From positions 309,410 to 349,409 of the forward strand of contig NZ_BMOC01000001.1 in assembly GCF_014646875.1 (NCBI RefSeq): a DNA stretch of 40,000 nucleotides. The letters run 5' to 3'. Shown here piece after piece: positions 1,443-40,000 of this stretch (the stretch's first letter is position 1; the number at the start of each line of letters is the position of its first letter). This stretch comes from Halobellus salinus. GTDB lineage: Archaea > Halobacteriota > Halobacteria > Halobacteriales > Haloferacaceae. The notes under the pieces were generated by a model. It saw only the letters and a program-made list of their open reading frames with translations. It searched no databases and was not told where the DNA came from. Made by a program: the position numbers and the translations under genes.

Positions 1443-1652
1443 ATCCGTTCTTCCGACGCGGGGCGACAAAAAAGCTCACTTCGCCGGGCATCGGGTGCAC
1501 GCGAAAACCGAGTACTGCGGCCGCCCGAGAGGTGCTCGTGAGGCACGGGCTATCGTAGCGTTTGCAGGTCTGTACTCACTTGATCGCACGTAGTCGTGTG
1601 ATCTGCTGAGCAACCAGTTGCAAACGCTGCGATCCCCGTCGTGATCGCCGTC

Positions 1653-1707
1653 GGCACGCGGGAGGCACGCGGGAGGCACGCGGGAGGCACGCGGGAGGCG
1701 CGCGGGA
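1653..1707. repeat. 11-bp tandem repeat 'ggcacgcggga' x5 (last copy a->g)
   Basis: Read directly: five head-to-tail 11-nt units with no spacers. Intergenic, between divergent USP genes. Confidence 0.9.
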
Positions 1708-1725
1708 GGGTGGTCGCCGGTCCTG

Positions 1726-1805
1726 ATACTGTCGGCTATAACTACGTGAAGATTTTCGACACCCCGGGGTGTCGAAATACGTCACGCGACTATAGCCGAC
1801 AGTAT
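1726..1805. repeat. 80-bp nested palindrome upstream of USP gene
   Basis: The outer arms 'atactgtcggctata' (1726-1740) and 'tatagccgacagtat' (1791-1805) are perfect reverse complements. The inner 24-nt perfect palindrome 'tttcgacaccccggggtgtcgaaa' lies at 1754-1777. Confidence 0.85.
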
Positions 1806-1943
1806 GACCGAGACGACGACGGGCGGGGTCACGCGGCGGTGCCGGGCGCCGGACCGACGCCGCCTCGAGGCGAACCGGGGCCGGACGGGTCCAAGCGGGG
1901 ACCGCCGACGGTATTTATTGTCCCGCCGACCGCACCCCACCGT

Positions 1944-2411
1944 ATGTTCGAGACCATTGTGGTCGCCACCGACGGGTCCGGGAGCGCACGCCGCGCGGTC
2001 GACACGGCGCTCGACCTCGCGGCGCGGTTCGACGCCGCGGTCGAGTGCCTGTACGTCGTCGACGAGGAGGAAGTGTCATCGTCGCCGGAGCGGCTACAGG
2101 ATGAGATGCGGACGGCACTCGAAGAGCGCGGCCAGGAGGCGGTCGCAACCGTCCGGGCGGCTGCCGACCGCGAGGTACGGACCGAGATCCGGGCGGGGCG
2201 GCCGGCGTCGGTCATCGACGGCTACGCCCGGGAGGTCAACGCGGATGTGGTTGCGATGGGAACCCGCGGCCGCCACGGCGAGAACCGGTTTCTGGTAGGG
2301 TCGGTGGCCGAGCGCGTGGTCCGGACCTGTCCCGTTCCGGTGTTGACCGTCCGCCAACTCGCCGCCGACGAAAACACCGAGGCCCCGGTTGCGGCGCCGG
2401 GCGGGGAGTGA
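1944..2411 (+). CDS. Universal stress protein (UspA family)
   Basis: Starting at the ATG at 1944: 'MFETIVVATDGSGSARRAVDTALDLA...' and the canonical C-terminal 'VAMGTRGRHGENRFLVGSVAERVVRTCPVPVLTV'. The upstream part of track ORF 1641-2411 translates the repeat/palindrome and is not credible coding. Confidence 0.85.
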   Translation: MFETIVVATDGSGSARRAVDTALDLAARFDAAVECLYVVDEEEVSSSPERLQDEMRTALEERGQEAVATVRAAADREVRTEIRAGRPASVIDGYAREVNADVVAMGTRGRHGENRFLVGSVAERVVRTCPVPVLTVRQLAADENTEAPVAAPGGE

Positions 2412-2601
2412 GCGGGGCGTGCCCACGGCGCGGACCGGAGTCCCGCGGTCCCAACGGCTCCGGTTCCGGCAGTTCACACGTGTCGCCTGCGCGCACGTCG
2501 CCGCCCAGGAACCCGGTTCTGTGGAGTGAAGCGGGCCCGGCGGGCCGATGCCGACGCGCCGCAGTCGCGGATTTATTGCCCCGGCCGCGCACCGTCGTGG
2601 T

Positions 2602-3846
2602 ATGGACATCGACCGGGAGCGACTCCGGGAGGACATTGAGGCGAACGCGGCGTTCGGCGCGGTCGACGCCGAGGACGGTCGGGGGCGGACCCTCCTGACG
2701 GGGAGCGACGCCGACCGACGGGCGAGAGAACGGTTCGTCGACCGCCTCGGCGACGCCGGCCTCGACGTGCGAGTCGATGCCGTCGGCAACATCGCGGGCC
2801 GGTGGGCGCCCCCCGAATGCGACCCCGGTGCCGCGCCCGTGGCGTTCGGCAGCCACCTCGACTCGGTCCCCCGCGGCGGGATCTTCGACGGGCCGCTCGG
2901 GACATACGCGGCGCTCGAGGGGGTGCGCGCCATGCAGGACGCCGGCGTCACCCCCGACCGCCCGGTCGAGGTCGTGTCGTTCACCGAGGAGGAGGGTGCC
3001 CGGTTCGGGATCGGCACGCTGGGGTCGTCGGTGGCGGGGGGGCACCGCGACGCGGCCGACGCGCTCGGACTCGTCGACGACGAGGACGTCACTCTCCGGG
3101 AACGCCTCGACGCGATCGGGTTCTGTGGCGACGACGCGATCACTCCCGGAGCGTGGGACGCGTGGGTGGAACTCCACATCGAGCAGGGAACCCGGTTGAC
3201 TGAGGCGGGCGCGGGCGTCGGAGTGGTCGAGGCGATCACCGGCATCACCAACTGCGAGGTCGAGATCGCGGGCGAGGCCGACCACGCGGGGTCGACGCCG
3301 ATGTACGAGCGGACCGACGCCCTGACCGCGGGCGCCGAGTTCGTACTCGACGTCGAGCGCGCCGCCGAGGAGGTCGCCACGGACCGGGAGTCGGCGGTCG
3401 CGACCGTCGGACAGGGCACCATCGAACCGAACGCCCGGAACATCGTCCCCGGCGCGGTCCGGTATCAGTTGGACCTCCGCGACACCGACTCGGAGACGAT
3501 GGACCGGTTGGTCGACCGGTGTCGGTCCAGTCTGGCGCGGCTGGAACGGACCAACGGTGTCGACACCGGCCTCGACCGGTACCGGACCAACCCGCCGACA
3601 CCGATGGCCGAGCGGTGTCTCGCGGCCGCCGACAACGCGGCCGCGACCCGCGGCACCGACGCGATCCGGCTCCACTCCGCGGCGGTCCACGACACCGCGA
3701 ACCTGGCGGCGGCGACCGACGTGGGGCTGCTGTTCGCGCCGTCGGTCGACGGCGCCTCCCACTCGCCCCGGGAGTGGACCGACTGGGACGACTGCGCGGC
3801 GGCGGCGGGCGTACTCGCCGAGACCGTCAGGGCGCTTGCGGAGTGA
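2602..3846 (+). CDS. M20-family Zn-dependent amidohydrolase (hydantoinase/carbamoylase or allantoate amidohydrolase type)
   Basis: 'AFGSHLDSVPRGGIFDGPLG', 'VVSFTEEEGARFG' and 'GEADHAGSTPM' match the motifs of the N-carbamoyl-amino-acid/allantoate amidohydrolase group. ATG at 2602 (MDIDRERL...). Confidence 0.85.
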   Translation: MDIDRERLREDIEANAAFGAVDAEDGRGRTLLTGSDADRRARERFVDRLGDAGLDVRVDAVGNIAGRWAPPECDPGAAPVAFGSHLDSVPRGGIFDGPLGTYAALEGVRAMQDAGVTPDRPVEVVSFTEEEGARFGIGTLGSSVAGGHRDAADALGLVDDEDVTLRERLDAIGFCGDDAITPGAWDAWVELHIEQGTRLTEAGAGVGVVEAITGITNCEVEIAGEADHAGSTPMYERTDALTAGAEFVLDVERAAEEVATDRESAVATVGQGTIEPNARNIVPGAVRYQLDLRDTDSETMDRLVDRCRSSLARLERTNGVDTGLDRYRTNPPTPMAERCLAAADNAAATRGTDAIRLHSAAVHDTANLAAATDVGLLFAPSVDGASHSPREWTDWDDCAAAAGVLAETVRALAE

Positions 3847-3908
3847 GTTGGGGCGTCCCACCGCTCGGAGGGTCCGGCTTTTTGTGAGGGGTCGGCGAAA
3901 CGGGGGGT

Positions 3909-4352
3909 ATGCCCCGGTACGCGATCAACCCACCCGAACTCAAGGACGCCCGCGGGATCGGGTACAACCACGCAATCGTCGAGGGCGGGCGGTTCTATAT
4001 GGCCGGACAGGTCGCTATGGACGCCGACTCGAACGTGGTCGGCGACGACATCGAGACGCAGGCGCGGAAGGCCTACGAGAACGCCGGGACCTTGCTCGAC
4101 GCTGTGGGGAAGGGGTTCGGCGACGTAGCGAAGGTCACCACACACATCGTGGATCCAGCCGAGCACTACTACGACGGGTACAAACGGGTCTACTGGGAGA
4201 CGTTCGACGAACCGTACCCGTGTCACACCGTGCTCGGCCACGACCAGTTGGCCAACGAGGACTACCTCGTGGAGGTCGAAGTCGAGGTGCCGCTGTCCGA
4301 GGCCGATGTCGACGCGATCGAACCCGACGGCGACGTGATACGGGCGGTGTAG
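3909..4352 (+). CDS. RidA/YjgF family (reactive intermediate deaminase-like) protein
   Basis: 147 aa. 'GRFYMAGQVAMDADSNVVGDDIETQARKAYENAGTLLDAVG...VAKVTTHI' is the typical RidA/L-PSP pattern. Confidence 0.85.
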   Translation: MPRYAINPPELKDARGIGYNHAIVEGGRFYMAGQVAMDADSNVVGDDIETQARKAYENAGTLLDAVGKGFGDVAKVTTHIVDPAEHYYDGYKRVYWETFDEPYPCHTVLGHDQLANEDYLVEVEVEVPLSEADVDAIEPDGDVIRAV

Positions 4353-4405
4353 CCTCGTCGCCCCCAACCGCGCCGGTTTTCACCCCGGCGGCCGTCGGAC
4401 GCGCT

Positions 4406-5647
4406 ATGAACGACGAACTCATCGACAGCGGGCGACTCTCGCTCACGCGAAAGTCCCAACTCCCCGGAACGGGGTTCTTCTATCCGGACTCCCTCGACGA
4501 GTCCCGAACCGAAGAACGGGTCGCCGAAGCGGTCGACGGCGCGGAGGCTGTGGTCGTTGCCGACACCGACGCCGACGGGTTGGGGTGTGTGGCGCTGCTT
4601 CGGGAGGTCTACGACGCGACGCTGTCGTGGGCGTCGTTCGCGGACGACGTCTCCGACCGGGTCGACCGGTGGGACGAGCCGGCCGGCGGCGCCGACGACG
4701 AAACCGAAGGCGAGGAGGAGGGAGCCGAGCACCCCCGATCGACGGTCGCGTTGGTCGGCGCCGGCCCATACTCCCTGGATGAGTCCCTACGGAACGTCGT
4801 CGAGTACGCGCCCGGGGGGATCGACCTCTACGTGTGTGACCTGTGTCCCGACGAGTACGACTGGATCGCCGACGAACTCGCCGCCGCGGTCGACCTCGCG
4901 GCGTCGGTTGCGTGGTACGACCACCACCAGTGGGACGCGGAGACGGCCGACTCAGTCCGCGACGCCGGCGTCGACCTCGAGGTCGGCGAATCCGACGAGG
5001 AGTGTTCGACCGACGTGACGCTCCGGTCGCTCGACTACGACTTCGACGAGCAATGGACCGAACTCGCCGCGGTCACCCGGGATCACGACCTCTGGGAGAA
5101 GGAGGACCCACGAAGCGACGACCTCGCGGATTACGCCTACTGGACGGATCCCGAGGAGTACGTGACGGTGGTGGGGACATTCGGCGTCGACCTCCCCGAC
5201 GTCGTCGCGGAGTATATCGACCGCCGGCGGGTCGAGAAGGAGAACCTGATCGACGCGGCGGTGTCGCGGGCGGAACTCAGGGAAGTCGGCCCCTGGACGG
5301 TGGGCGTGGCCTACGGCCGGTGTTCACAGAACGAGGTCGCGGAGGCGTTGCGAGAACAGGGCGCCGACGCGGCGGTCGTGGTCAAGCCCGCAGGCAGCGC
5401 GAGCATCCGGGGGTCCGAGACCTTCGAGCGCGCCCACGAGGTCGCGGGGCGTGTCAACGGCGGCGGCCACCCCCGCGCTGCGGGGTGTAAACCCGACATC
5501 TACGACGACATGCTCGATTACGCCAACCACTGGACCACGAGCGGGGCGACAACGAAGCGGGTGATCCTCCGGGCGTTCGAGGCGGTTGCCGAGGAGGTCG
5601 AAGCGGCGGCGGCCGACGGCGGGGACGCTGACGCCGGCGACGAGTAG
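4406..5647 (+). CDS. DHH/DHHA1 family phosphoesterase (RecJ-like)
   Basis: From the ATG at 4406: 'VVVADTDADGLGC' (DHH motifs I/II), 'WYDHHQW' (DHH motif III) and 'VNGGGHPRAAG' (DHHA1 GGGH). The 5' 283 codons of track ORF 3557-5647 are Arg/Pro-rich shadow frame overlapping other genes. Confidence 0.8.
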   Translation: MNDELIDSGRLSLTRKSQLPGTGFFYPDSLDESRTEERVAEAVDGAEAVVVADTDADGLGCVALLREVYDATLSWASFADDVSDRVDRWDEPAGGADDETEGEEEGAEHPRSTVALVGAGPYSLDESLRNVVEYAPGGIDLYVCDLCPDEYDWIADELAAAVDLAASVAWYDHHQWDAETADSVRDAGVDLEVGESDEECSTDVTLRSLDYDFDEQWTELAAVTRDHDLWEKEDPRSDDLADYAYWTDPEEYVTVVGTFGVDLPDVVAEYIDRRRVEKENLIDAAVSRAELREVGPWTVGVAYGRCSQNEVAEALREQGADAAVVVKPAGSASIRGSETFERAHEVAGRVNGGGHPRAAGCKPDIYDDMLDYANHWTTSGATTKRVILRAFEAVAEEVEAAAADGGDADAGDE

Positions 5648-6872: not shown

Positions 6873-7223
6873 TAACCGGCGTTTTGGAATCAATCGAAAT
6901 AATAGTTCGGGACTGTCCGACGGTACTGTTCAGGTGAACGCGACTCGTCCGACACGTTCCACACCGGATCGGAATCGCGGGAGGTGCCAGACGCCGCGAC
7001 TCCCGTCGGTGATTAGCCCCATCACATCCCGCCGCCGGTGTCTTGGGCGAGGGCGGGGTCGAACGGGATGTCTGCGGGTTCGTCGTCGGGGGTGACACGC
7101 CGAACCGGACGACCACGGACGAGGCACGGTCGACGGAACTGCTAATCGACCCTGCGTAGGCGTTCGGGGGCTGGCTACCCCTCGTAGCCCGCGTCCTCCA
7201 TCAGCAGTGCGAAGGCGTCCGTA

Positions 7224-7733
7224 TCACTCCCGGCGGAGCAGCGCAACGAGGGTCGCGATCAGCCCGAGTTCGCTCGCCATCGACGCCGCCGCCCACGGGT
7301 CGCTGGTGAGGTGGCGGACGACGTTCGCGACGGGCGCGACACCGTGGAGCAGCGGCTCCCGGCCGGGGAGGAAGCCGCCGTGGCCGGTCAGGTGCCACGC
7401 GAGGTACCCCACCACGTACGTGAGCGCCACCACGATCCCCGCGACGTAGTAGGGCCGTCGGTTCGGGGCGTTGCGGCTGAGCGAGACGCCGACCAGGAGC
7501 GCCGTCGCCGACACCACGAACGCGGCAGGTCGTGGATCGAACACGAGCACCCGGGGGTTGGCGTAGAGCAACGCGAACAGTTCGAGCAGGCCGTGATTCG
7601 GGTCCAGGAGGTGCAACAGGGCGACGAGGGTTGCGAGCGCGGCGCCGAGATACCGGAGTCGTCGCGTGGTGAGTGTGGCTGCGCCGCCGTCGAGGGAGTC
7701 ACGCGCCGTGGCCGAAGAGTCGTCGGCGGACAT
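7224..7733 (-). CDS. Hypothetical integral membrane protein (about 4 TM)
   Basis: 169 aa with several hydrophobic helices ('YLGAALATLVALLHLL', 'AAFVVSATALLVGVSL', 'YYVAGIVVALTYVVGYLAW', 'LGLIATLVALL'). Confidence 0.6.
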   Translation of the reverse strand: MSADDSSATARDSLDGGAATLTTRRLRYLGAALATLVALLHLLDPNHGLLELFALLYANPRVLVFDPRPAAFVVSATALLVGVSLSRNAPNRRPYYVAGIVVALTYVVGYLAWHLTGHGGFLPGREPLLHGVAPVANVVRHLTSDPWAAASMASELGLIATLVALLRRE

Positions 7734-7887
7734 CTACGGATTGGTCGGTGGCCGCGAGTATTCAATCTTCGGCGGATGCCCGCGGTCGTGGTTAGGTACT
7801 AGACAGCCGGCCGGAAAGCCGCCCCCGGCGGGAGTCCCGCTCGTTCCACCCGCTGGACTCCCGCTCAGCCGCGGTTCGAACTCCTTT

Positions 7888-7905
7888 TGACTGACCGGAC
7901 AGTCA
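7888..7905. promoter_or_regulatory. Candidate TetR operator palindrome
   Basis: 'tgactgaccggacagtca' is an 18-nt palindrome with one mismatched pair. It ends 17 nt upstream of the TetR GTG start. Confidence 0.4.
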
Positions 7906-7921
7906 GTTTGAGGCACACACT

Positions 7922-8542
7922 GTGACCGACGCACCGACCGAGATCCTGGACGCCACCCACTGCGCGCTCCGCGAGCACGGCTACGCGGAGGTGACGATGC
8001 GGGACATCGCCGACAAGACCGACCTGAGCAAGGCCGCCCTCCACTACCACTACGACTGCAAGCACGACCTGCTCGTGGCGTTTCTGGATCACCTCTACGA
8101 CCGATTCGAGGCGCGGATCGGCGACCCCGACGGCGATTCCCCGGCCGAGCGTCTCCACTCCCTGGTCGATGCGCTCCTCACCGAAGGCTCTGAAAATCCG
8201 GCGTTCCGGACCGCCCTCCTCGAGATCAAGGCGCAGGCGCCGTACGACGACGCGTTCCGCGACCGACTCCGGCGGTTCGACAACGCCTTTTCATCGAGGG
8301 TCCGGACCCTCGTCGCAGACGGCGTCGCCCGCGGGACGTTCCGTGACGACGTCGACCCCGACACCGTGGCGTCGGCGCTCACCACGTTCGTGAACGGCGC
8401 ACAGACCCGCCACGTCGGGGTCGGCCACCCGCCGGCGCAGTCGGCGACGACGCTCCACACCTACATCGACACCGCGTTGCGGCCGCGGGACGAACCGGGT
8501 GACGGGAGCGACACAGACGACGCCGGGAGCGCGTCCGGATGA
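7922..8542 (+). CDS. TetR/AcrR family transcriptional regulator
   Basis: The N-terminal HTH 'ILDATHCALREHGYAEVTMRDIADKTDLSKAALHYHYDCKHDLL' is the TetR signature. GTG start. The stop overlaps the MATE start (ATGA at 8539-8542). Confidence 0.85.
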   Translation: MTDAPTEILDATHCALREHGYAEVTMRDIADKTDLSKAALHYHYDCKHDLLVAFLDHLYDRFEARIGDPDGDSPAERLHSLVDALLTEGSENPAFRTALLEIKAQAPYDDAFRDRLRRFDNAFSSRVRTLVADGVARGTFRDDVDPDTVASALTTFVNGAQTRHVGVGHPPAQSATTLHTYIDTALRPRDEPGDGSDTDDAGSASG

Positions 8543-10005
8543 GCCTCCTCGATCGGCTGGAGTCGGTGTTCAAAGGTCCAGAGGAACTCTCGCTCACCAG
8601 CGGCGGGATCGGGTGGCCGCTGTTTTACCTCTCGTTACCCATCGTCGTCACCAACCTCCTCCAGGTGGGGTACAACCTGGCCGATACCTTCTGGCTCGGC
8701 CAGTACAGCACCGAAGCGCTGGCGGCGATCAGCTTCGGGTTCCCGATGATCTTCCTCCTGATCGCGCTTGGGATGGGGATCTCCGTCGCCGGCAGCGTCC
8801 TGGTCGCCCAACACATCGGCGCGGGCGAGGAGGCTGAGGCCGAGTACGCGGCGTCACAGACGGTCATCTACGGGCTCGTCGCCTCGGCGATCCTCGGTGC
8901 GGTGGGGTACGCCGCCGTTGGGCCGTTCATCACGTTCCTCGGGGCGTCGCCCGAGGTGCAGCCGCTCGCGGCGGGATATATGCGCGTAATCTCCGCCGGA
9001 CTACCGTTCATGTTCGGCTTCTTCGTGTTCATCGCGCTGATGCGCGGCTACGGCGACACCGTCACCCCGATGCTCGTGATGTTCGGGTCGGTCGTGCTCA
9101 ACATCGCGATCGACCCGATCCTGATCTTCGGGTTCGAGAACAACCCGCTGTTCGGGATGGTCGGACTCCGCGGGGTCGAGGCGTCGCTGTTCGCCGCCAC
9201 CGGCTACACCGGGTCGGGGATCGAGGGCGCCGCAATCGCGACGGTGTTCTCCCGAGCGCTGGCGTTCCTGGTCGGGATCGCGGTCATGATCCAGGGAGTC
9301 CGCGGGGTCCGGATCCGGCCGAGTCAGATGCGCCCCGACCCCGTCTACCTGCGCAAACTGCTCGATATCGGCGTCCCCGCGTCGATCGAGGGGACCGGCC
9401 GAGCGCTGTCGGTGAACCTCCTCTTGCTCGTGGTGGGGATGTTCCCGACAACGGTCGTCGCCGCCTACGGCATCGGTGTCCGGGTGTTCTCGGTGATCTT
9501 TCTGCCCGCGATCGCGGTCGCCCGCGGGGTCGAAACCATGACCGGCCAGAACATCGGTGCCGAGAAACCCGACCGCGCCGGGTCGGCCGCGGACTTCGCG
9601 GCGAAGGTGACGTTTCTGGTGCTCTCGGGGTTGGGCGTGGTGGCGCTCCTGGCTACCCAACCGATCGTGGCCGCCTTCACGAACGACCCCGAAGTGGTCC
9701 GCGTGGGGGTGGAGTTCCTCCGGTGGGTGGCGCCTTCGTTCGGGTTCATCGGCGTGATGCGCGCCTACACCGGGAGCTTCCGGGGCGCGGGCAAGACGCT
9801 GGTCGCCGCCACCATCTCGATCATTATGCTCGGGGTTGTCCGGATTCCGGTGGCGTACGTCGCGTCGCTCTCGCTGGGGGAAAGCGGGATCTGGGTGGCG
9901 TTTCCGGTCTCGAACGCCGCCGGCGCCCTCATCGCGTACGTGTGGTACCGCCGCGGGACGTGGCAGACGGAGTCGGTGCGGGGACCGACGCCCGCCGACG
10001 ACTGA
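8539..10005 (+). CDS. MATE family efflux transporter
   Basis: 488 aa and about 12 TM. 'LPIVVTNLLQVGYNLADTFWLGQYS' and the internal duplication pattern are typical of MATE/NorM proteins. Translationally coupled to TetR. Confidence 0.9.
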   Translation: MSLLDRLESVFKGPEELSLTSGGIGWPLFYLSLPIVVTNLLQVGYNLADTFWLGQYSTEALAAISFGFPMIFLLIALGMGISVAGSVLVAQHIGAGEEAEAEYAASQTVIYGLVASAILGAVGYAAVGPFITFLGASPEVQPLAAGYMRVISAGLPFMFGFFVFIALMRGYGDTVTPMLVMFGSVVLNIAIDPILIFGFENNPLFGMVGLRGVEASLFAATGYTGSGIEGAAIATVFSRALAFLVGIAVMIQGVRGVRIRPSQMRPDPVYLRKLLDIGVPASIEGTGRALSVNLLLLVVGMFPTTVVAAYGIGVRVFSVIFLPAIAVARGVETMTGQNIGAEKPDRAGSAADFAAKVTFLVLSGLGVVALLATQPIVAAFTNDPEVVRVGVEFLRWVAPSFGFIGVMRAYTGSFRGAGKTLVAATISIIMLGVVRIPVAYVASLSLGESGIWVAFPVSNAAGALIAYVWYRRGTWQTESVRGPTPADD

Positions 10006-16823: not shown

Positions 16824-16937
16824 CGCACCGGTGACTCGTGGTCCGCGGCAAAAAAGGCCGATCTCGCCCGGGCAGCCGTTCTGTATAGCGCGTATTAGTT
16901 TATATTTGCCAGATACCGCCGAAACGGACAACTGCCC

Positions 16938-19269: not shown

Positions 19270-19462
19270 CCAGTGCTGTGTAGTTGGGAGCGAAATCGGC
19301 GGAAACCGGAGAGTGAGACCCTCCGAAACCCCCGCGGTCTCGACCCGATGGGCTCGCTGTCGTTCGAAAGACGCTGCGCGTCGTTCGTGTTCACGAGAGG
19401 GCTGCGTCCATCGATGTCCCGCTCGATTCACTCGCGGGACTTCCGCCCGACGGCCGTTTTTT
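19270..19462 (+). ncRNA. Candidate structured RNA or leader (unidentified)
   Basis: There is an A/T-rich box 'aataaaaatc' at 19246-19255. A long-range pairing joins 'cggcggaa' (about 19283) and 'ttccgccc' (19441-19448) and encloses several local hairpins, for example 'gtcccgc...gcgggac' and 'gacgc-tgc-gcgtc'. A T6 run at 19457-19462 follows immediately. Strand and ends are uncertain. Confidence 0.2.
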
Positions 19463-32341: not shown

Positions 32342-32370
32342 CAGCGCAGGGTGTGACGGAGCGTTTGATC

Positions 32371-32444
32371 GCGTCGGACACCTACTCGCTCGAACGCACG
32401 TCCAGCCGCGTCGGACACCTACTCGCTCGAACGCACGTCCAGCC
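32371..32444. repeat. Perfect 37-bp tandem duplication at the convergent gene junction
   Basis: 'gcgtcggacacctactcgctcgaacgcacgtccagcc' occurs twice back to back (32371-32407 and 32408-32444). The first 6 nt of a third unit follow. The second copy contains the stop and last 8 codons of the minus-strand 1108-aa gene. Confidence 0.9.
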
Positions 32445-35400
32445 GCGTCGAGAGCGTGTCCGGGAGCGTCGGCGTGTCGGCCTCGTCTTCGGCGTCGACC
32501 CGCCAGCGTTCGGCGTTGTCGGTCCGGTCCCCTGAGACGGTCACCGCCGTCGAGTGAGGGCCGTCGGCGCCGTTGAACGGGGTGACTTCAAGTTCGATCG
32601 GGAGTTCGACGCGGTCGTCGTTGACGGTGCACTCGACCCGGTGGGTCGCGGTCGATCCGGGGTCGAGCGCGTCGATCTCGCCGGGTGCGTAGAGGTACTC
32701 GTCGGGCGCCGTGCCGGTGGCCTCAACGCGGACCGCAACCGGCGCGCCACCCTCGTTTTCCAGCCGAAGCACGACGTTGGTGTCGCGGTCGCCGAGGATG
32801 TCCACCGAGTCGACGGCGACGGAGACGGGCGGGGCGTGTGAGTCGTGGACCGCCGCGAGGGTTTGCAGCGGCCGCTGCCTGTGGTCGATCCGGACGAGCG
32901 TCAGCGCCGGGCGTTCGGTTGGCGCGCCCTGGTAGGTGATCTCCCGGGTTACGTCACCGCCGGGAGCGACGTCGAACCCGTCGAAGCCGACACCTGTGGA
33001 GAACCCCTTCGAGCCGATTTCGAGCACGGAACACGACGTCTCAAGGTTGTTATGAACGTCAAGCCGGACGTCGGTCGTGGTCGACCCCGCCGAGAGCGCG
33101 GGACGAACGACGACCGGTGCGGGTTCGACCGGAACCGACACCCCCGGCACGGTCACCTCGGCGTCGTCCGCGCTGGCGGTGACCGGCGGGACCTCGATCG
33201 AGGAGGTGTCCCACGCGGCGTGATACCGAGTGGCAGTCGCCGTTGTCTCCGGGCTGAGTTCGACCGTGGCTGCGTCACCGTCGGACCGGAGGGTGATCGA
33301 CTTCGGCTCCGGCGAGCGGTTCTCGACCGTGAGCGTCTCTTCGAGGGCGTGACCCTCGTGAGCGGTGTCCGAGTCCAGGCTGCGGTCAAGGCCGAGCGGG
33401 TCGCGGGGTGCCGGGGAGGCGGACTCCTCGGATGCGGCGGAGTCGTCAGGGGCGGCGGGCGAAACGGGCGAGTCGACCGACTCCGGTGACGGTCCGCGCT
33501 CGGGGCCGGGGGTCGCGTCCGGCTGGCCGGCCGACCCGGGGGCCGCCGGTGCGGACGCGTCGCCCGCCTCCGCGGAATCCGGCGGCGTTGTGTCCCGGTC
33601 CGGAGGGGCCGCCGGTGCGGACGCGTCGCCCGGCTCCGCGGAGTCCGGCGGCGTTGTGTCCCGGTCCGGAGGGGTCGCCGGTGCGGATGCGTCGCCCGCC
33701 TCCGCGGAATCCGGCGGCGTTGTGTCCCGGTCCGGAGGGGTCGCCGGTGCGGATGCATCGCCCGCCTCCGCGGAATCCGGCGGCGTTGTGTCCCGGTCCG
33801 GATGGGGGGTCGAGGGCGTGTCGCGGCCGCCGCGTGTCGGCGTGTCCGCGCCCGGGACCCGGTCCTTGCCGTCGTGTGCGTGGTCGTTGCGGCCGTCCTG
33901 TGGGGCGTCCGTCCCGCCGGCCGACGGGAGCGTCGCGCGGTCAAGCGAAACAGCGGCGGTGGCGTCGACCGCCGCGGCGTCGATCCTGACCTCGCCGACA
34001 CCGGCGCGGGCAGACGGAAGCGCAAGTGTGAGTCGACCCCCGGCCGGGAGAGACACCGACCGCTCTACCGGGGTGACCAGCGGGTCGCCGGTCACCCGCA
34101 CGTCGTCGTGGACCGTTATGTCGGTGTCGTTCCGGAGCGTCACGTCGACGAACCCGTCGTCGCGTGCGCTGACGGACGCCGAAAGCGGGGTTGTCGGGGG
34201 TGACACCGCGGCGTCGACCGACTCCCCGTCTCCGGTTGTGGCGGTCACTCGCTCCGTCGTGAGGGGGAGCGAGAGCGTCCGTGACACCGAGGACCGCCCC
34301 GGTTCGGGATCGATGTCGACGCCGCCCGGGGAGAGCGACACCGCCGGGAGATCCGACCCGTCCGGCGTCCGAACGCTCACCTCAACGGTCGCAGTCCCGT
34401 CGTCGACACCGGTGACATCAGCACCGACGACCGGGGTTGGGGTTGCCGGCGGGACCGAAATCGTCGCCCCGACCTCGGTCGGTTCCGAGCCATCGGTGCC
34501 GCCGGGGGTGAACGTCGCACGGGCTGCAAGCCGAGACCCCGCCGCCTCCGCGAGCGTGAACCGCAGTTCGGTGCGTTCGCCGGCGTCAAGCGAGACCCGC
34601 CGGGATTCGGGACGGAACGATCCGTCGTCGGCGGACGCCCGAACCGTCCCGGTGGTCGGCTCACCGATGGTTTCGGCCGTGACAACGAGTTCCGAGCCGA
34701 CCCGGAGCGACGTCGGCGAGAGGTCCAAGTCGACGCCGGAAAGCGACGCCGCAGGCCGAAGCACCCCGGCGGTCCGACCGTCGATCCGGCAGGCCACCTC
34801 CCCGTCGGTTGTGACCGCGACCTGCGTTGCGTCTGGTGTGTCGATCCCGACGTCGGTCACCGCGCCGTCGGCGGAGATCCGGACTACGCCGTGATCGGCG
34901 GCGGCGTAGAGCCCCCCGTCACCCCGCGGTGCGAGCCACTCGACGTCGAGGTGCAGTTCCCACCGGATCGCCCCGTCGTCCGCGTCGACGCCGACGACCC
35001 GATCACCGTGGAGCGACACCACCGCCACGTCTTCGAGCAGTCCGACGCCCGTGATGGTGCCGTCGAGCATCGCCTCTCCCGTCCGATCGCCGTCGGGGCC
35101 GAACCCGGTGAGGTACCACGACTCGCCCGCGAGGAACTCCTCGCCCCGGCCGGCGAGCAGGACGGTCTCGGACACGTCGGCGTGGGTCCGGTCGATCCGT
35201 CCGCGTTCGGTCCCGTCAGCGTCGTCGAGTAGCACGAACTCTCCGGTGTCGGTGGCGGCGACCACCCGCGATTGGTCGGGCACCCAACACAGCGCCGTGG
35301 CGCCGTCAATGGGCGCCTCCCACCGTCGTGCGCCGTCGAACCCGTACCCGAACACGTGGTCGTCGACCGCGACGTACACCAGCGGCCCGACCGCAAGCCC

Positions 35401-35745
35401 GCGCGGCCGTGCTTCGACGCCGAACCGCGCGCCGTCGTCGGACCCGGCCGCGAGCACGGAGACCCCGCCGGAGACCGACGCCAGCGCGATCCGGGAGTCG
35501 CCGGCGGCGATCAGCGCGATCGCCCCGGTGTCGACCGACCTGACCTGCGCGTACTCCCGCGGGAGGTCGCCGCCCGCGACCGCATCGGGCGTGTCATCGG
35601 CGGTGCCCCCCTCCGAGGCACGGCCGGTCACCGGAACTCGCCTCCCGAGTCGCGCGGCGCACACTCCGGTCGTCGTCGGCCGTGTCGCGTGCGTGGCCGA
35701 TCGGATATCATACCCGGACCTGGAATCCGGAGTGACAAAAAACAC
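32419..35745 (-). CDS. Large PQQ-like beta-propeller plus Ig-like repeat protein (about 1108 aa) with internal 22-aa tandem repeats
   Basis: The N-terminal third has repeated 'DG..RWE' blades ('GFDGARRWEAPI', 'DADDGAIRWELHL'). The C-terminal half has CARDB-like strands ('TLTVENRSPEPKSITL', 'VVLRLENEGGAPVAVRVEATG'). The GTG start is uncertain. No obvious signal peptide. Confidence 0.8.
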   Translation of the reverse strand: MFFVTPDSRSGYDIRSATHATRPTTTGVCAARLGRRVPVTGRASEGGTADDTPDAVAGGDLPREYAQVRSVDTGAIALIAAGDSRIALASVSGGVSVLAAGSDDGARFGVEARPRGLAVGPLVYVAVDDHVFGYGFDGARRWEAPIDGATALCWVPDQSRVVAATDTGEFVLLDDADGTERGRIDRTHADVSETVLLAGRGEEFLAGESWYLTGFGPDGDRTGEAMLDGTITGVGLLEDVAVVSLHGDRVVGVDADDGAIRWELHLDVEWLAPRGDGGLYAAADHGVVRISADGAVTDVGIDTPDATQVAVTTDGEVACRIDGRTAGVLRPAASLSGVDLDLSPTSLRVGSELVVTAETIGEPTTGTVRASADDGSFRPESRRVSLDAGERTELRFTLAEAAGSRLAARATFTPGGTDGSEPTEVGATISVPPATPTPVVGADVTGVDDGTATVEVSVRTPDGSDLPAVSLSPGGVDIDPEPGRSSVSRTLSLPLTTERVTATTGDGESVDAAVSPPTTPLSASVSARDDGFVDVTLRNDTDITVHDDVRVTGDPLVTPVERSVSLPAGGRLTLALPSARAGVGEVRIDAAAVDATAAVSLDRATLPSAGGTDAPQDGRNDHAHDGKDRVPGADTPTRGGRDTPSTPHPDRDTTPPDSAEAGDASAPATPPDRDTTPPDSAEAGDASAPATPPDRDTTPPDSAEPGDASAPAAPPDRDTTPPDSAEAGDASAPAAPGSAGQPDATPGPERGPSPESVDSPVSPAAPDDSAASEESASPAPRDPLGLDRSLDSDTAHEGHALEETLTVENRSPEPKSITLRSDGDAATVELSPETTATATRYHAAWDTSSIEVPPVTASADDAEVTVPGVSVPVEPAPVVVRPALSAGSTTTDVRLDVHNNLETSCSVLEIGSKGFSTGVGFDGFDVAPGGDVTREITYQGAPTERPALTLVRIDHRQRPLQTLAAVHDSHAPPVSVAVDSVDILGDRDTNVVLRLENEGGAPVAVRVEATGTAPDEYLYAPGEIDALDPGSTATHRVECTVNDDRVELPIELEVTPFNGADGPHSTAVTVSGDRTDNAERWRVDAEDEADTPTLPDTLSTRLDVRSSE
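33541..33804. repeat. 66-bp tandem repeat x4 inside the 1108-aa gene (encodes PPDRDTTPPDSAEAGDASAPAT x4)
   Basis: Four nearly identical 66-nt units are visible on the plus strand ('ggccgccggtgcggacgcgtcgcccgcctccgcggaatccggcggcgttgtgtcccggtccggagg'), with a few substitutions. Confidence 0.85.
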
Positions 35746-35778
35746 CTGCCCGGAGCGGGATCGCTTGATCGCGGCGGG

Positions 35779-37035
35779 TCACACCAACCCGGACGGGAGG
35801 AGGATCGCAACAACCACGAGCGCGAGCGCACCGGCGCCGGCCGACGCCACGACCCCGGCACCGATCGCCCGCCGGCGCTGCCGGTCCCGGTCACCCGCGG
35901 GTTCGATGGTGACGCCGTACGGCTCCAGTGCGGACGCGAGCGCCTCGCGGGCGGCGTCGGGGCCGATCACAGCCGCGACCCGCGAGACGGCGTCACCGAC
36001 GGCTGCGGGGTCGGCGTCGACCGCCGGCGGGTCCGACGACCGGTCGGGGCCGTCGCCCGCCACGACGGCGAGGAGCGCGCCGGCCCAGACCGCCGCCACC
36101 AGAAGGCTGCCGACAGCGAGAAGCCACCGCGAAACCGATCCGACACCCCCCGACCACGCCACCCCGACAGCAGCCCCGACAGCGACGCCGCTCGGGAGGC
36201 CGTAGGAGAGCGTCCGACGGAGTTCCCGCCGGGTGACCGCGGGCGGCGACGACGGGACCGCGCGGACGCCCAACTCGGCGGTGATATCGGCCCGATCGAC
36301 CGCGGCCGCGACGCCGGTCGCAACGGGGACCGACGCCGATTCGAACCCCGCGGCCGCCGACTCGACGGCATCATCGATGGCAGCGGTCGCGGCCGCCGCT
36401 CGCCGACGGTCGAGCCACGCCGAGAACTCCGGGCCGGGCGTCACGCGGTCGACATTTCCCGTCGGTCGAACGATGACATCGGCGCCCGCGATAGTCTCGA
36501 CAGCCGTCGATTCTGAGACCGCGACGGCGTACCCCTCGAACGTCTCGGTGACGTGTGCAAGCGTCGCCGCGGCGGTGTCGTAGTCGGGGACCGCCAGGTC
36601 CACCGCACCCAGGTCGTCGACCGCGTCCTGGATATCCGCCGGCCCGACCGACTGCTCGGCGAGGCCACGCTCGACCGCCGTGAGCGAGTCCGGGTCGAAC
36701 GCCGACCCGTCGTCGAGGGCGTCGTAAAGCGCCTGTGTCCCGCCGGAGGCGCGCTGGATCGTCCACTCCCGGCGCGCCGAAAGCGCCCGGAGGCGGTCGA
36801 ACAGGGGTGAGAGGAGGGCCTCATCGGTGCCGGACTGGTAGGTCGCCACGAACTGCTCGGGGCTCCGGCGGTGGATGTTGACCTGGATACGGACCAGTCC
36901 CGCGCCCGGGTCGTAGAACGCCGCAACACCCGCGTTAAACTCGCGTTTGATCCGTTCGAGCCGGCGGTCGTCGGCCTCGCCGTCGGAGTCGTAGATCGGG
37001 CGGCCACCGCTGCCGTAGAGGCGGAATCGACTCAT
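35779..37035 (-). CDS. Hypothetical protein: soluble N-terminal domain plus C-terminal TM segments (418 aa)
   Basis: The ATG at 37035 (MSRFRLYGSGGRPIYDSDG...) lies 7 nt downstream of the upstream stop. The 5' extension in track ORF 35779-37290 overlaps the upstream gene and is Arg/Ser/Thr-rich. TM helices are 'GLPSGVAVGAAVGVAW', 'WLLAVGSLLVAAVWAGALLAVVA' and 'AGVVASAGAGALALVVVAILL'. Confidence 0.7.
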   Translation of the reverse strand: MSRFRLYGSGGRPIYDSDGEADDRRLERIKREFNAGVAAFYDPGAGLVRIQVNIHRRSPEQFVATYQSGTDEALLSPLFDRLRALSARREWTIQRASGGTQALYDALDDGSAFDPDSLTAVERGLAEQSVGPADIQDAVDDLGAVDLAVPDYDTAAATLAHVTETFEGYAVAVSESTAVETIAGADVIVRPTGNVDRVTPGPEFSAWLDRRRAAAATAAIDDAVESAAAGFESASVPVATGVAAAVDRADITAELGVRAVPSSPPAVTRRELRRTLSYGLPSGVAVGAAVGVAWSGGVGSVSRWLLAVGSLLVAAVWAGALLAVVAGDGPDRSSDPPAVDADPAAVGDAVSRVAAVIGPDAAREALASALEPYGVTIEPAGDRDRQRRRAIGAGVVASAGAGALALVVVAILLPSGLV

Positions 37036-37042
37036 ACCGTGG

Positions 37043-39133
37043 TCACTGGTTGATCCGCTGCATGAACTGGCGGGCGCCTTTGAGAACCGAAGAGGGGCCG
37101 CGAACGTTGATCCGTAACTCGTCGGTGCCCGCCGGGTCCTCGTTTTTGATGTCGTACCACAACAGGTACAGCGGGTCGGGGTCGGTTGCCCCGCCGAAGA
37201 TCTGGGTGATCTCGGGGTTCTGTTCCCGGACGATCTCGTCGCGGACGTAGTCACAGAACGCCCGGTAGCCGTCTGCCTGGGGAGCCGCACTCGACTCGCG
37301 GTGCGACTTGAAATCGTCGAGCATCCAGTCAGCCATCGTGCCCACGATCACGACTTCCTTCTCGGGGTAGATCGCCTGGATCGCCTCGTACCACCCGAGG
37401 TAGTCGGCGACCGCGTCGCGAGTGGGGCCTTTGACGCCGTAGTTCAGACCGTCGTACTCGATTGTCCGGATGTCGCTCCGGCGGTAGTCGTCGTACTCTT
37501 CGGGGGTGACGACACGGTCCCGGAGGTACGCGGGGACGTTGCCCCGCTCGATCACCGGCGCGACGAAATCGTCGAGCGGGAGCGTCAGCACGATCCGGTC
37601 GGCGTTGTGCACGCACCCCCGAATCCCGGGGATCATGTCCGAGAGGGTCTCGGCCTCCCGGATCGACTGTGTCGCCGCCTCCCACGACGACTTCGGGTCG
37701 ATGTCGGGTCCGTCGTCGGTGACATCCCCGTCGCCGAAGAGGCTCGCCTCGGAGGCGTTCGCGAGTCCGCCGGAGCTGTCTCCGAAGGGGCTGTCCGACC
37801 CGGAGTCGTCGTACGTCGATCCCGCCGCTCCGGCACTGGTCGTGCCCCCGGACGCGCCTCCCGAGTCGGAGCCGGTCTGAGAGCTCACTCCCGACGACGA
37901 ACCGGGACTGCCGTCGCGGCCGTCGCCGTCGTCGCCGTCGTCGGTCGCGCCCCACTGGACCGCCGAGTCGCTGTCGTCGTCGCCGTCGTCGCCTTCCGAA
38001 AAGGGGATGTCGAAGTCCGAGCTCTCGCGTTCGCCCCCGTCAGTGGCGATCTCCGCGTCGCCGCCCTGGGTCTGTTGGGTCGCCTTCTCCATCACCTCCG
38101 CGAGGATGTCCTCTAGGGCCTCGCCGGGGTAGTCGACCACGCTGAACCGGACGCGAGTCGGGACGAACCGCCCCCACGAGTACGGGAGCTCGAGCAGCAT
38201 CGGCTGGCTCTCCCCGGACCCGTCACCCCCCGGCTGGAGGGTCGCAGGTGTCGGGTCGGGAAACTGCGTGCTCTCGATGCTCTGGCGCAGTCTACTGACT
38301 CGGGTGGCCGCCGCGCCGCCCTCATCGACGTTGTCGCGGATGTAGAGGTGGATCCCGCCGAACACCGCGCTCTTGCCGCTCCGCTTCGGGCCGAGCATGA
38401 TGGCGTTCAGCCCCCGCTCGTAGGTCGTGAAGTACCGGAGCGCGGGCAGGAGCACGATCACGCCGACGAGGTGTGCCGCGGCGTCGGTACCCACCACGCC
38501 CTCGAAGGCGAACGTCTGCGTGCCGAACCCGTCGGCGACGGCCACGACCGGGCTCCGGTAGACCACGTGGGCCTCGAAGAGGCCGAAGACCGCGAGAGCG
38601 GCGGTGAGCCAGAAGATGAGCGCCGGGATCCGGGGGAACTCCCGCTGGTCGGCGTCGATGCCGTCGAACGTGACGCCGCCGATCCGGAGGGTCACGACGG
38701 CCGCGAGAAGCGCCGTCAGTACGGTGTTGGGACCGAAACTCGTCGCCAGGGGTTCGACAAAGACGCCCCGCGGGATGAACACCACCGGCACCGCAAGCAG
38801 GGTCGCGACCGTGAGGACCGCTCCTTGGACGTATTTGAACGAGTCGAGCAGAAGCCCCACCACGAGCCCTACAAACACCCCGAGCGGGATGTAGTAGAAA
38901 AACGTCGGCGCGACCCCGGCCGCGTTCATCCCGCCTCTGAGGCCGTGCCTAGCGACGCTCCACGGACGGTGTCCCCACGCGGTCGCGAGGAGTTCGATCA
39001 CGGACACGCTTGCGACGAGCAACAGCCCGATGGAGGCGAGAAACAGGAGCCGCCGCTGTCTCCTGTTCGACGGGGCGAGCGTCGGAAACGACATCATATC
39101 AGTGTTCTCACCCGTGAATGTACTAAAACCCAT
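37043..39133 (-). CDS. Polytopic membrane protein fused to a P-loop GTPase-like NTPase domain (696 aa) with acidic/Gly-Ser low-complexity insert
   Basis: The N-terminal about 235 aa carry about 6 TM helices. Walker A 'MLGPKRSGKS' (aa 246-255, core at nt 38369-38392). 'SVVDYPGE' is DxxG-like. An Asp/Gly/Ser-rich insert spans about aa 355-480. 'VIVGTMADW' may be an [NT]KxD-like element. Confidence 0.8.
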   Translation of the reverse strand: MGFSTFTGENTDMMSFPTLAPSNRRQRRLLFLASIGLLLVASVSVIELLATAWGHRPWSVARHGLRGGMNAAGVAPTFFYYIPLGVFVGLVVGLLLDSFKYVQGAVLTVATLLAVPVVFIPRGVFVEPLATSFGPNTVLTALLAAVVTLRIGGVTFDGIDADQREFPRIPALIFWLTAALAVFGLFEAHVVYRSPVVAVADGFGTQTFAFEGVVGTDAAAHLVGVIVLLPALRYFTTYERGLNAIMLGPKRSGKSAVFGGIHLYIRDNVDEGGAAATRVSRLRQSIESTQFPDPTPATLQPGGDGSGESQPMLLELPYSWGRFVPTRVRFSVVDYPGEALEDILAEVMEKATQQTQGGDAEIATDGGERESSDFDIPFSEGDDGDDDSDSAVQWGATDDGDDGDGRDGSPGSSSGVSSQTGSDSGGASGGTTSAGAAGSTYDDSGSDSPFGDSSGGLANASEASLFGDGDVTDDGPDIDPKSSWEAATQSIREAETLSDMIPGIRGCVHNADRIVLTLPLDDFVAPVIERGNVPAYLRDRVVTPEEYDDYRRSDIRTIEYDGLNYGVKGPTRDAVADYLGWYEAIQAIYPEKEVVIVGTMADWMLDDFKSHRESSAAPQADGYRAFCDYVRDEIVREQNPEITQIFGGATDPDPLYLLWYDIKNEDPAGTDELRINVRGPSSVLKGARQFMQRINQ

Positions 39134-39148
39134 CCCACTACCCGGTGG

Positions 39149-40000
39149 TCACAGTCGACGTAACACGTCGTCGTACCCACGTGACTCGGTCCTGGACACC
39201 GGGAGCACCCTCCCGAGGTAGGCGGTCCCGAGTCGGAGGATGTCGGTCCGGAGGAAGTTGAGGAACTCGTCGTCGTCGAAGTCATCGTCGCCGTGGATGT
39301 CGAGCGCGATGTCGGCGTCGGTCGCGACCACGTAGACATCGGGCATCGAGGCGGCGCCGCAGGCCTCCCCGATCCGGTGGTATCTGCCTGCGTCCCCGAC
39401 TCCGTCTTCGGGTTCCCACAGGTACGCAGGGGTGTTCACCCACGACTCGTCGAACTCGCCGCCCTCCTCCACCAGGTACTGGTCGATGATCTCATCAAGC
39501 GGGGCCAAAAGCAGCATCACGTCCGCGCCCACTAACCGGTCGAGGTGGGCGCCGCCCGAGCGCCGGAGCACCGACCGGACCGACGCCGGGGCCGCGAGCA
39601 GGAGGTGCCGACGGAACCCGTACCACGCGCGTGATCCGAGCGACGACCGCTCCTCGGCGACCGTCTCGATCGCCGCGGCGTCCTCGTCGGTCACCGGACG
39701 GATGTTGTCGTACGCCACCTTCCGCCGGCGGACGAAGACGCCACTGCCCGGCTGGTACTGGAACGCCACCCGGCCGGTGACGGAGGGCTGGGAGTGCTGC
39801 AGGGCCCGCGCGTCGTTCAGCACATCACCGCCCTCAAGCGTGGTCGCGCCGTACCGCCGGTCGGCAGCGTCGTACAACCCGCCGAGAAAGCTCGACACTG
39901 TCCCGTCATCGGGCGAGGAGATGACGACGTCCGTCACGTCGGAATACCTCGTGAAATACCCCATCAGGTAGACGAGCGCCGACACCGCGAGGAGATCCAC
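39149..40000 (-). CDS. Hypothetical protein, 5'-truncated by window edge
   Basis: The ORF is open to the window end. The stop lies 15 nt upstream of the GTPase-like gene start. Composition is acidic ('IHGDDDFDDDEFLNFL'). No family motif recognised. Confidence 0.6.
   Translation of the reverse strand: MDLLAVSALVYLMGYFTRYSDVTDVVISSPDDGTVSSFLGGLYDAADRRYGATTLEGGDVLNDARALQHSQPSVTGRVAFQYQPGSGVFVRRRKVAYDNIRPVTDEDAAAIETVAEERSSLGSRAWYGFRRHLLLAAPASVRSVLRRSGGAHLDRLVGADVMLLLAPLDEIIDQYLVEEGGEFDESWVNTPAYLWEPEDGVGDAGRYHRIGEACGAASMPDVYVVATDADIALDIHGDDDFDDDEFLNFLRTDILRLGTAYLGRVLPVSRTESRGYDDVLRRL

Follow-up and report, generated by a model that had tools for sequence, protein, structure and literature searches.

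A probable lineage variant of the archaeal FtsZl1 cassette, with a membrane GTPase and a P-loop-less paralogue, beside a tubulin island of Halobellus salinus

Gene order at the end of the window

The DNA analysed in the current study is a 40,000 nucleotide (nt) stretch of Halobellus salinus (contig NZ_BMOC01000001.1, positions 309,410–349,409), referred to here as the window. At its end, four open reading frames (ORFs) lie on the minus strand (nt 32419–35745, 35779–37035, 37043–39133 and 39149–40000) and converge upon an eight-gene operon that includes two tubulin genes. In the direction of transcription they encode the truncated product of a first gene, a membrane GTPase of 696 amino acids (aa), a membrane-anchored partner, and a propeller/immunoglobulin (Ig)-repeat protein. 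Taken as maximal ORFs they are spaced 15, 7 and 33 nt apart, just as a sequence-only reading of the window had described, and their order is conserved in Halobellus-clade loci. The longest possible ORF of the partner reaches nt 37290. The G+C content of the window is even along its length (64–73%), and the ORFs lying opposite the four genes, on the plus strand, are of the kind that a high G+C content commonly produces. The three genes at nt 35779–40000 are the distal part of an archaeal FtsZl1 cassette, which comprises genes for FtsZl1, a pseudo-GTPase, the membrane GTPase and a protein probably of the A1 type. The propeller gene forms a unit separate from the cassette and goes with the facing tubulin island.

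The beginning of the cassette lies outside the window. A 227 kb public contig (L029), which is identical to the window at all bases of a 14,222 bp overlap and runs past nt 40000, carries in series a Tubulin_2 gene (FtsZl1, 1139 aa) and genes for proteins of 477, 696, 418 and 1070 aa, the last being the propeller protein. The gaps in this series are -4, 15, 7 and 147 nt, i.e. the start of the 477 aa gene overlaps the FtsZl1 stop codon by 4 nt. Upstream of FtsZl1 are genes for histidyl-tRNA synthetase and pseudouridine synthase, and FtsZl1 starts 187 nt downstream of the latter. Within this spacer, about 31 nt ahead of the FtsZl1 ATG, is the TATA-like sequence ATATTTAT; a distance of about 31 nt is usual for the TATA box on haloarchaeal leaderless mRNA. 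Extension beyond nt 40000, which had been suggested as a way of finding the operon start, leads therefore to a TATA-like promoter and then to the 1139 aa FtsZl1 at the head of the unit. The earlier picture of a self-contained four-gene operon has to be abandoned: the first gene extends to nt 40582, a Tubulin_2 gene comes before it, and the propeller gene is separate.

All four minus-strand genes occur in the same order in eight genome loci of the Halobellus clade (L001–L008), with the exception that the contig of L007 stops short of the propeller gene. Two distant genome loci both keep the homologue of the first gene and the GTPase, and one of them keeps the partner. Protein identities across the ten genome loci range from 25 to 87%. 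The gene order of the cassette is kept in 10 of 10 loci from species-representative genomes and also in loci L016 and L019, and in every one of these a pseudo-GTPase of 470–497 aa is found between FtsZl1 and the GTPase. Overall, the GTPase gene is located downstream of FtsZl1, with tight operon spacing, in 14 of the 15 loci examined. The coordinates of the genes, and of features within and between them, are given in Table 1.

Table 1. Features at the end of the window and just beyond it (nt in window numbering; residues are those of the 696 aa GTPase)
Feature	Position (nt)	Strand	Remarks
FtsZl1 (Tubulin_2) gene	~40579–43998		1139 aa; beyond the window, from L029
Membrane pseudo-GTPase, 3' part	39149–40000	-	283 of 477 codons; gene continues to ~40582 (L029)
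Membrane GTPase	37043–39133	-	N-terminal membrane domain and C-terminal G domain; 696 aa from first ATG
G1/Walker A, GPKRSGKS	38369–38392	-	Residues 248–255; 96-sequence alignment
G3/Walker B, DYPGE	38120–38134	-	Residues 334–338; alignment and model
Disordered insert, 116 residues	37700–38047	-	Residues 363–478; after the helix behind switch II
G4, TMAD	37328–37339	-	Residues 599–602; family variant T[KM]xD of NKxD; alignment
Partner, probably of the A1 family	35779–37035	-	418 aa; starts 7 nt after GTPase stop
T6 run in motif TTTTT.TC..TCC	35737–35742	-	36 nt after partner stop; six loci
Arg-rich small ORF (putative)	35628–35711	-	27 codons, MISDRPRTRHGRRRPECAPRDSGGEFR; ATG 31 nt past T-run start
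Propeller/Ig-repeat protein	32419–35631	-	1070 aa from GTG 35631; maximal ORF 1108 aa

The membrane GTPase, its paralogue and the probable A1-type partner

The 696 aa protein had been described from the sequence as about six transmembrane (TM) helices joined to an NTPase domain with GPKRSGKS, DYPGE and TMAD motifs. This description stands, as the motifs are invariant or nearly so in an alignment of 96 family sequences. Five to six hydrophobic helices occupy residues 24–237. Residues D97, G248, G253, K254, G337 and D602 are invariant in the alignment, D334 and T599 occur in 90% or more of the sequences, and K100 is nearly invariant. D97 and K100 are part of a motif, DxxK[RY]xQG, that is common to the GTPase and its inactive twin (see below). 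The probable start of the protein is at nt 39097 (684 aa), which is the NCBI start and agrees with the alignment of homologues; the NCBI protein of Halobellus salinus is identical to the 696 aa product from residue 13 onward. The disordered insert contains 25 D, 25 G and 23 S but no K. Close homologues differ in the length of this insert, and the 480 aa Haloarcula GTPase, a classical member of the family, lacks it.

A profile search of 1.84 billion representatives with the GTPase returned 254 clusters at E <= 1e-3, of which 189 were at E <= 1e-10, and the matches were 480–830 aa in length. In 163 of 175 inspected sequences a membrane domain of some 230 residues precedes a P-loop of the form G.{4}GK[ST], which nearly always reads GPxxxGK[ST], and most of the 175 also carry a G3 motif of the DY[PA]GE type as well as T[KM]xD. 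The TKxD and TMxD forms alternate across the family, the Met form being that of the window clade. Close relatives make up 29 clusters, from Halobellus, Haloquadratum and a Halorubrum metagenome-assembled genome (MAG). One family member of 513 aa (L015, nt 7001–8542) has no adjacent FtsZl1 gene, and its neighbours encode a CARDB protein, a 228 aa protein and a 541 aa protein without a Pfam match.

Searches of Pfam, NCBIfam and PADLOC with the GTPase, the partner and the truncated gene gave either no match or a sub-threshold match at chance level. A search of PDB sequences with the GTPase was negative, and a PDB profile search with the broad GTPase alignment gave no significant match. The statement of the sequence-only reading that none of these proteins could be assigned to a family is correct as far as the curated libraries go, but the GTPase and, probably, the partner match families of the FtsZl1 system described in 2010 (see below), and the truncated gene is a GTPase paralogue. 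The label attached by NCBI to the identical protein is 'DUF456 domain-containing protein', while some relatives are labelled 'GTPase SAR1 family protein' by JGI. A DUF456 identity was rejected: no Pfam match was found at E <= 0.1, and the name comes only from the source annotation.

An AlphaFold2 model of the GTPase, built from the 96-sequence alignment, reached a mean predicted local distance difference test score (pLDDT) of 81.9 and a predicted template modelling score (pTM) of 0.77. An earlier model from 17 close sequences had a pLDDT of 58, and its fold search was uninformative. In the present model the G domain comes after six membrane helices and a small sheet of four strands. The membrane helices have pLDDT values above 90, and only the N-terminus, a short piece of switch I, and residues 373–468 are disordered. 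The order of secondary structure elements typical of a G domain is present, with strand 1 leading into the P-loop, strand 4 having the sequence ADRIVLTLP, and strand 5 leading into TMAD. Two strands (residues 312–320 and 326–334), separated by a turn of five residues, run into DYPGE, and so short a turn ahead of Walker B is, on a reading of the model, what a member of the TRAFAC class would show.

When this model was compared to the PDB with Foldseek, nearly all of the 50 top matches were GTPases. The best were to YcjX (E 0.017–0.03, probability 0.97–0.99), followed by septins (E 0.14–0.3), and others included MglA, LRRK1 Roc, GIMAP2, atlastin (E 0.5), EF-Tu and Ras. Profile and structure searches had been proposed as a means of placing the NTPase domain, with dynamin and septins among the candidates; they yield weak GTPase fold matches (YcjX, septins) and no dynamin in the top 50. 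A dynamin or bacterial dynamin-like assignment was rejected, as there was no such Pfam match at E < 0.1, no stalk in the model, and no such protein among these top fold matches.

YcjX (6nz4, 6nz5, 6nz6), a P-loop GTPase with helical insertions, is the closest fold to the window G domain, with about 155–165 aligned columns, 16–18% identity and a root-mean-square deviation of about 7 Å. Pfam and PDB profile searches gave no sequence-level match between the two. YcjX is soluble and has no link to a tubulin-family gene, whereas the window GTPase has a fused membrane domain. It is encoded together with a membrane protein, YcjF. Septins, GIMAP and atlastin are the next-best fold matches (E 0.14–0.5), none of them significant. 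Septins and related proteins are membrane-associated GTPases that form homo- or hetero-oligomers, and some septin subunits are catalytically inactive, which provides a precedent for a pair of active and inactive GTPases. The window GTPase differs from septins in its G4 motif (T[KM]xD) and in having an integral membrane domain instead of peripheral binding, and no septin-unique element, polybasic region or coiled coil was seen in it.

The truncated first gene is a GTPase paralogue from which the P-loop has been lost, and hence codes for a pseudo-GTPase. Compared with the GTPase family by hhalign, it matches from the membrane domain through the P-loop position (probability 99.4%, E 5e-22), and a broad G-domain profile matches from strand 4, via the G4 strand, to strand 6 (probability 96.5%, E 7e-10). 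At the P-loop position, where the GTPase has GPKRSGKS, the window gene has SSPDDGTVS and its homologues SSPDDxTVS. The protein lacks both GK[ST] and the glycine of DxxG, and its G4 position is variable (ATDAD, VTEGD or VTGA), while the membrane-domain motifs LDxxKHVQG and ERYLxYxSP are kept. At least five further P-loop-less representatives are found among the matches listed from the GTPase profile search.

The partner had been read as a soluble N-terminal domain plus TM segments, and it does have a conserved N-terminal domain of about 290 aa, beginning MSRFRLYGSGGRP, and two to three predicted C-terminal TM segments. It matches a 410 aa protein of Haloarcula over 181 columns from residue 1 (hhalign probability 84.5%, E 7e-6), and a PDB profile search with the partner alignment gave no match. 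In L009, L010 and L016, the N-terminal domain and TM segments of the partner are fused to a strong PQQ propeller, giving proteins of 1036–1063 aa.

Relationship to the 2010 FtsZl1 system and to the tubulin island

The FtsZl1 proteins of the loci are giants of about 1000–1200 aa, with an N-terminal FtsZ-like core and without an FtsZ_C or Tubulin_C domain. They match Pfam Tubulin_2 (PF13809) at E values of 8.4e-6 to 9.4e-15, the weakest match (L001) scoring just under the Pfam cut-off, and the loop GLGGGTGSG is invariant among them. Against the PDB, FtsZl1 shows a weak match to FtsZ chains (E 0.003). A profile search with FtsZl1 gave 186 homologues at E <= 1e-3, in haloarchaea and Methanosarcinales, and PF13809 was present in all of the homologues among the matches listed (120 of 186). 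Pfam Tubulin_2 is the FtsZ-like family of Makarova and Koonin (PMC9871819), and members of their FtsZl1 family have about 1050 aa, an N-terminal FtsZ-like core with GGGTG(S/T)G, a coiled coil and a helical C-terminal domain (PMC2875224). A second FtsZl1 paralogue of 1125 aa, preceded by a DUF4397 protein, lies in tandem immediately upstream of the FtsZl1 of the cassette in Halobellus ordinarius (L004, nt 1486–4863) and H. marinus (L005, nt 1593–4970).

A membrane-remodelling system centred on FtsZl1 was predicted from comparative genomics by Makarova and Koonin (2010, Biol Direct 5:33; PMC2875224). In the operons described there, FtsZl1, a membrane associated GTPase and A1 are encoded by Huta_2051, Huta_2052 and Huta_2053 of Halorhabdus (1052, 482 and 408 aa), and the corresponding proteins have 1079, 485 and 742 aa in Haloterrigena and 1039, 559 and 821 aa in Methanosarcina acetivorans. 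The linkage of FtsZl1 and GTPase was found in Methanosarcina, Pyrococcus and haloarchaea, and the named type GTPases of the family, GTPase_new, are Huta_2052, Htur_1069, MA2712 and PAB1258. Kinases and a PQQ-propeller-kinase fusion are found near the Halorhabdus FtsZl1 locus, and vWA and kinase genes are present in bacterial FtsZl1 operons (all PMC2875224). In the current study, a locus of Haloarcula laminariae was found to have the published layout (1044, 480 and 410 aa). Its 480 aa GTPase carries the motifs GPKASGKS, DYAGE and TKAD, and matches the window family at a probability of 98.9% (hhalign, E 1.2e-17).

The 2010 operon and the window cassette are alike in that a Tubulin_2-type giant comes first, followed by the GTPase and by A1 or, in the window, the probable A1 protein, with PQQ propellers nearby. 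They differ in several respects. In the window cassette an extra GTPase paralogue, lacking G1 and G3, is located between FtsZl1 and the GTPase. Compared with the classical member, the window GTPase has a 116-residue acidic insert and TMAD instead of TKAD. The cassette is also without a vWA or kinase gene, and in Halobellus it abuts the propeller gene of the tubulin island. The link to tubulin-family proteins that the sequence-only reading had proposed does exist, but the tubulin that travels with these genes is FtsZl1, past the end of the window, and not the two of the facing operon.

The facing operon belongs to an island that is more widespread. Homologues of the second tubulin of the window (about 43% identity) occur across many haloarchaeal genera. 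In Halobacterium salinarum, Halobaculum gomorrense and Natrinema saccharevitans there are operons syntenic, gene for gene, with the facing operon (shared genes tubA, g360, g687, tubB, g1001, g364 and g899), although g360 is too diverged to detect in Natrinema. After each of these operons comes a convergent orthologue of the propeller gene, and a metagenome scan anchored on g899 found twelve more loci, with a convergent propeller gene in every one that had enough DNA. The non-tubulin proteins of the facing operon all have hydrophobic segments at or near both ends. The islands of L012, L013, L014, L027 and L028 contain a third tubulin (531–540 aa) and two further genes upstream of the shared part, and that of Halobacterium salinarum (L012) is situated on a 195 kb replicon (AM774417). 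By description alone, the multi-tubulin island may correspond to the 'Halo.Tub' group of Santana-Molina et al. 2023, the genes of which are described as being in 'quasi-tandem disposition' (PMC9871819).

It is the upstream neighbour of the propeller gene that varies. In Halobacterium, Halobaculum and Natrinema a gene for a single-domain AAA ATPase (PF00004) precedes the propeller gene, and in L012, L013, L014, L027 and L028 the two genes (ATPase of at least 529–603 aa) have overlapping stop and start codons. Among the metagenome loci, this neighbour is the A1/GTPase cassette in L019, L020 and L024, and the AAA ATPase in L027 and L028. In Halobellus it is the FtsZl1 cassette, and no AAA ATPase gene was found near it in the window or the upstream flanks. 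The five loci with overlapping ATPase and propeller genes carry the tubulin operon but no cassette. Conversely, the cassette is present without tubulin-operon genes within flanks of 7–10 kb in L009 (Salinigranum), L010 (Haloplanus), L011 (Haloarcula) and L016 (a metagenome contig). The A1-fused propellers of Salinigranum and Haloplanus were considered as orthologues of the window propeller and rejected, as the two are not detectably related (BLASTP E 0.045).

The propeller protein itself gives weak matches to PQQ_2 (E 0.002) and BamB (TIGR03300, E 2e-6). Its Halobacterium orthologue matches PQQ_2 at 7.5e-12 and CARDB at 3.7e-6, which strengthens the earlier view of the last gene as a PQQ propeller combined with CARDB/Ig units, and homology to the 911 aa Halobacterium protein is end to end (E 1e-33 and 5e-19). 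No signal peptide or TM segment is predicted, and the protein is regarded as cytoplasmic. The start is most likely the GTG at nt 35631, as this is the one called in the public record and distant orthologues show homology only from residue 63 of the maximal ORF onward; the corresponding GTG is the ORF start in three other loci. It is this start that gives the partner-propeller gap of 147 nt. Within the gene is a 66 bp repeat (nt 33539–33807, 4.1 copies, 96% match) encoding PDRDTTPPDSAEAGDASAPATP-type repeats. The linker that holds them is rich in Pro, Asp and Thr and connects the propeller/Ig part at the N-terminus with the Ig-like part at the C-terminus. A perfect 37 bp tandem duplication (nt 32370–32450, 2.2 copies, 100%) spans the propeller stop codon in the 77 nt convergent spacer; the first stop is kept, leaving the protein unchanged.

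The gap between the partner and propeller genes contains a conserved element. The T-run motif of Table 1 and a downstream TATG are invariant in six loci (the window, L002, L003, L004, L006 and L008). Only four T6 runs exist in the 40 kb window, each at a gene boundary; the others are at nt 19457–19462 (plus strand), 16850–16855 (minus) and 1468–1473 (minus), and one of them precedes the first tubulin gene by about 240 nt. In a genome so rich in G+C, oligo-T runs seem to be dependable signs of where transcription units meet. The T6 element may serve the propeller gene as a TATA box, the cassette as an oligo-T terminator, or the two at once, and as promoter or terminator alike it marks the boundary between cassette and propeller gene. 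The TGA of the putative small ORF overlaps the propeller GTG, and the resulting GTGA is invariant in the six loci. The length of the ORF is kept at 26–28 codons in all six, while the peptide sequence is poorly conserved. In L001 (nt 8720–9337) and L007, from a Halorubrum MAG and an uncultured Halobellus, the partner-propeller spacer is about 500–600 nt long, of different sequence and without the T-run motif.

A proposed GTPase pair for FtsZl1, and the alternatives

The cassette is a lineage variant of the 2010 system with two copies of the membrane GTPase gene, the result of a duplication, one of them now without the nucleotide-binding loop. We regard the identity and architecture of the FtsZl1 cassette as highly likely. 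Since classical operons have one GTPase and an active/inactive pair is found here, it is natural to infer a heterodimer. The two proteins, active and inactive, have a six-helix membrane domain in common and would probably pair in the cytoplasmic membrane, where their cytoplasmic G domains, under the control of GTP, would anchor FtsZl1 polymers to the membrane or switch their assembly. A1 would be a third membrane subunit, and in Halobellus the complex may also engage the propeller protein, thereby taking the role of the AAA ATPase. The role as a heterodimeric anchor or switch is put forward tentatively, at rather less than even odds. For the explanation as a whole, an FtsZl1 cassette variant with a GTPase/pseudo-GTPase pair, we would give a probability of about 0.65.

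Several points weigh against this explanation. Its functional steps rest on gene order and motifs, and full-text literature searches turned up no experiment on any family member. In the G4 motif of the GTPase (TMAD) a Met replaces the Lys of NKxD, which leaves the guanine specificity open to doubt. At least one family member, that of L015, stands apart from FtsZl1, so that the GTPase is not strictly tied to it. The connection to the 2010 family is one step indirect, passing through the Haloarcula locus of identical layout. Foldseek found no solved structure in the PDB at E <= 0.001, the best E value being 0.017. Finally, read-through at the T6 run could mean that the propeller gene is partly co-transcribed with the cassette.

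The sequence-only reading had suggested that the genes on the minus strand may make up one functional island of about 20 kb with the eight-gene tubulin operon that faces them. The convergent layout is indeed present in every Halobellus-clade locus that is long enough (the window/L029, L001–L006, L008, L019, L020 and L024), and the propeller gene of the island is directly downstream of the cassette on the same strand. PQQ propellers also recur with FtsZl1 cassettes, either fused to A1 (L009, L010, L016) or as neighbours (L011 and the published Halorhabdus locus), so that the Halobellus cassette may use the propeller protein of the island. However, the loci showing this adjacency are all close relatives (GTPase 61–87% identical), and it is explained by their shared ancestry. 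In other genera each occurs without the other, with five loci having the tubulin operon only and four the cassette only (within flanks of 7–10 kb), which is the opposite of the co-occurrence that had been looked for. The A1-fused propellers have no detectable relationship to that of the island, and the conserved promoter- or terminator-like element parts the cassette from the propeller gene. What remains of the suggestion is the propeller gene as the constant convergent neighbour of the tubulin operon; a single unit is unlikely.

A more specific form of this idea would be that the FtsZl1 cassette replaced the AAA ATPase as propeller partner in the Halobellus lineage, giving a single composite machine made up of the two CetZ-like tubulins together with FtsZl1, the GTPase heterodimer and the propeller/Ig scaffolds. 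We consider it somewhat less likely still. If true, it would show in a prokaryote that the AAA motor of a cytoskeleton-membrane apparatus can give way to a GTPase switch.

The 696 aa protein might instead be a GTP-gated transporter or channel analogous to FeoB, in which the six-helix domain would carry a substrate under the control of the G domain, with a link to FtsZl1 that is regulatory or incidental. FeoB also combines a G domain and a polytopic membrane domain in one chain, and the large membrane domain of the window GTPase (about 215 residues), the motif with invariant D97 and nearly invariant K100, and the family member without FtsZl1 (L015) would all be compatible with transport. In FeoB, though, the domain order is reversed and the genomic partners are different, and no transporter family was matched in Pfam or NCBIfam at E < 0.1 or found among the best fold matches. 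A FeoB-like assignment was rejected on the reversed domain order and the lack of any FeoB_N or transporter match in these two libraries. The position of the GTPase gene after FtsZl1 in nearly all loci, and the same linkage in the 2010 analysis (PMC2875224), also argue against a transporter, and the idea is improbable.

The least likely explanation, and one given very little weight here, is a mobile or defence-type module of plasmids and islands without a role in cell architecture: the related Halobacterium salinarum island is on a 195 kb replicon (AM774417), the distribution of the cassette is patchy, and the vWA and kinase genes of bacterial FtsZl1 operons are types common in conflict systems, but PADLOC-DB 2.0 gave no match for the five proteins scanned (E <= 0.1), the genes flanking the cassette are housekeeping genes, G+C is even across the window, and the loci read showed neither an integrase nor a transposase.

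The preferred explanation, an FtsZl1 cassette with a GTPase/pseudo-GTPase pair, concerns systems for which a role in membrane remodelling, widespread in bacteria and archaea, was predicted in 2010, with no experimental follow-up in the literature searched. What is new here is the GTPase/pseudo-GTPase pair, the acidic insert, and the place of the cassette beside a tubulin island where others have an AAA ATPase. The locus adds a well-defined archaeal version of the system, with a high-confidence model of the membrane GTPase, invariant catalytic residues, an inactivated twin and clear operon boundaries. Current views are not overturned, but an old open question is narrowed. The propeller protein is a fixed member of the multi-tubulin island across haloarchaeal genera, and as its upstream partner is either the AAA ATPase or the GTPase cassette, the two arrangements offer a comparable pair for studying the role of the extra archaeal tubulins.

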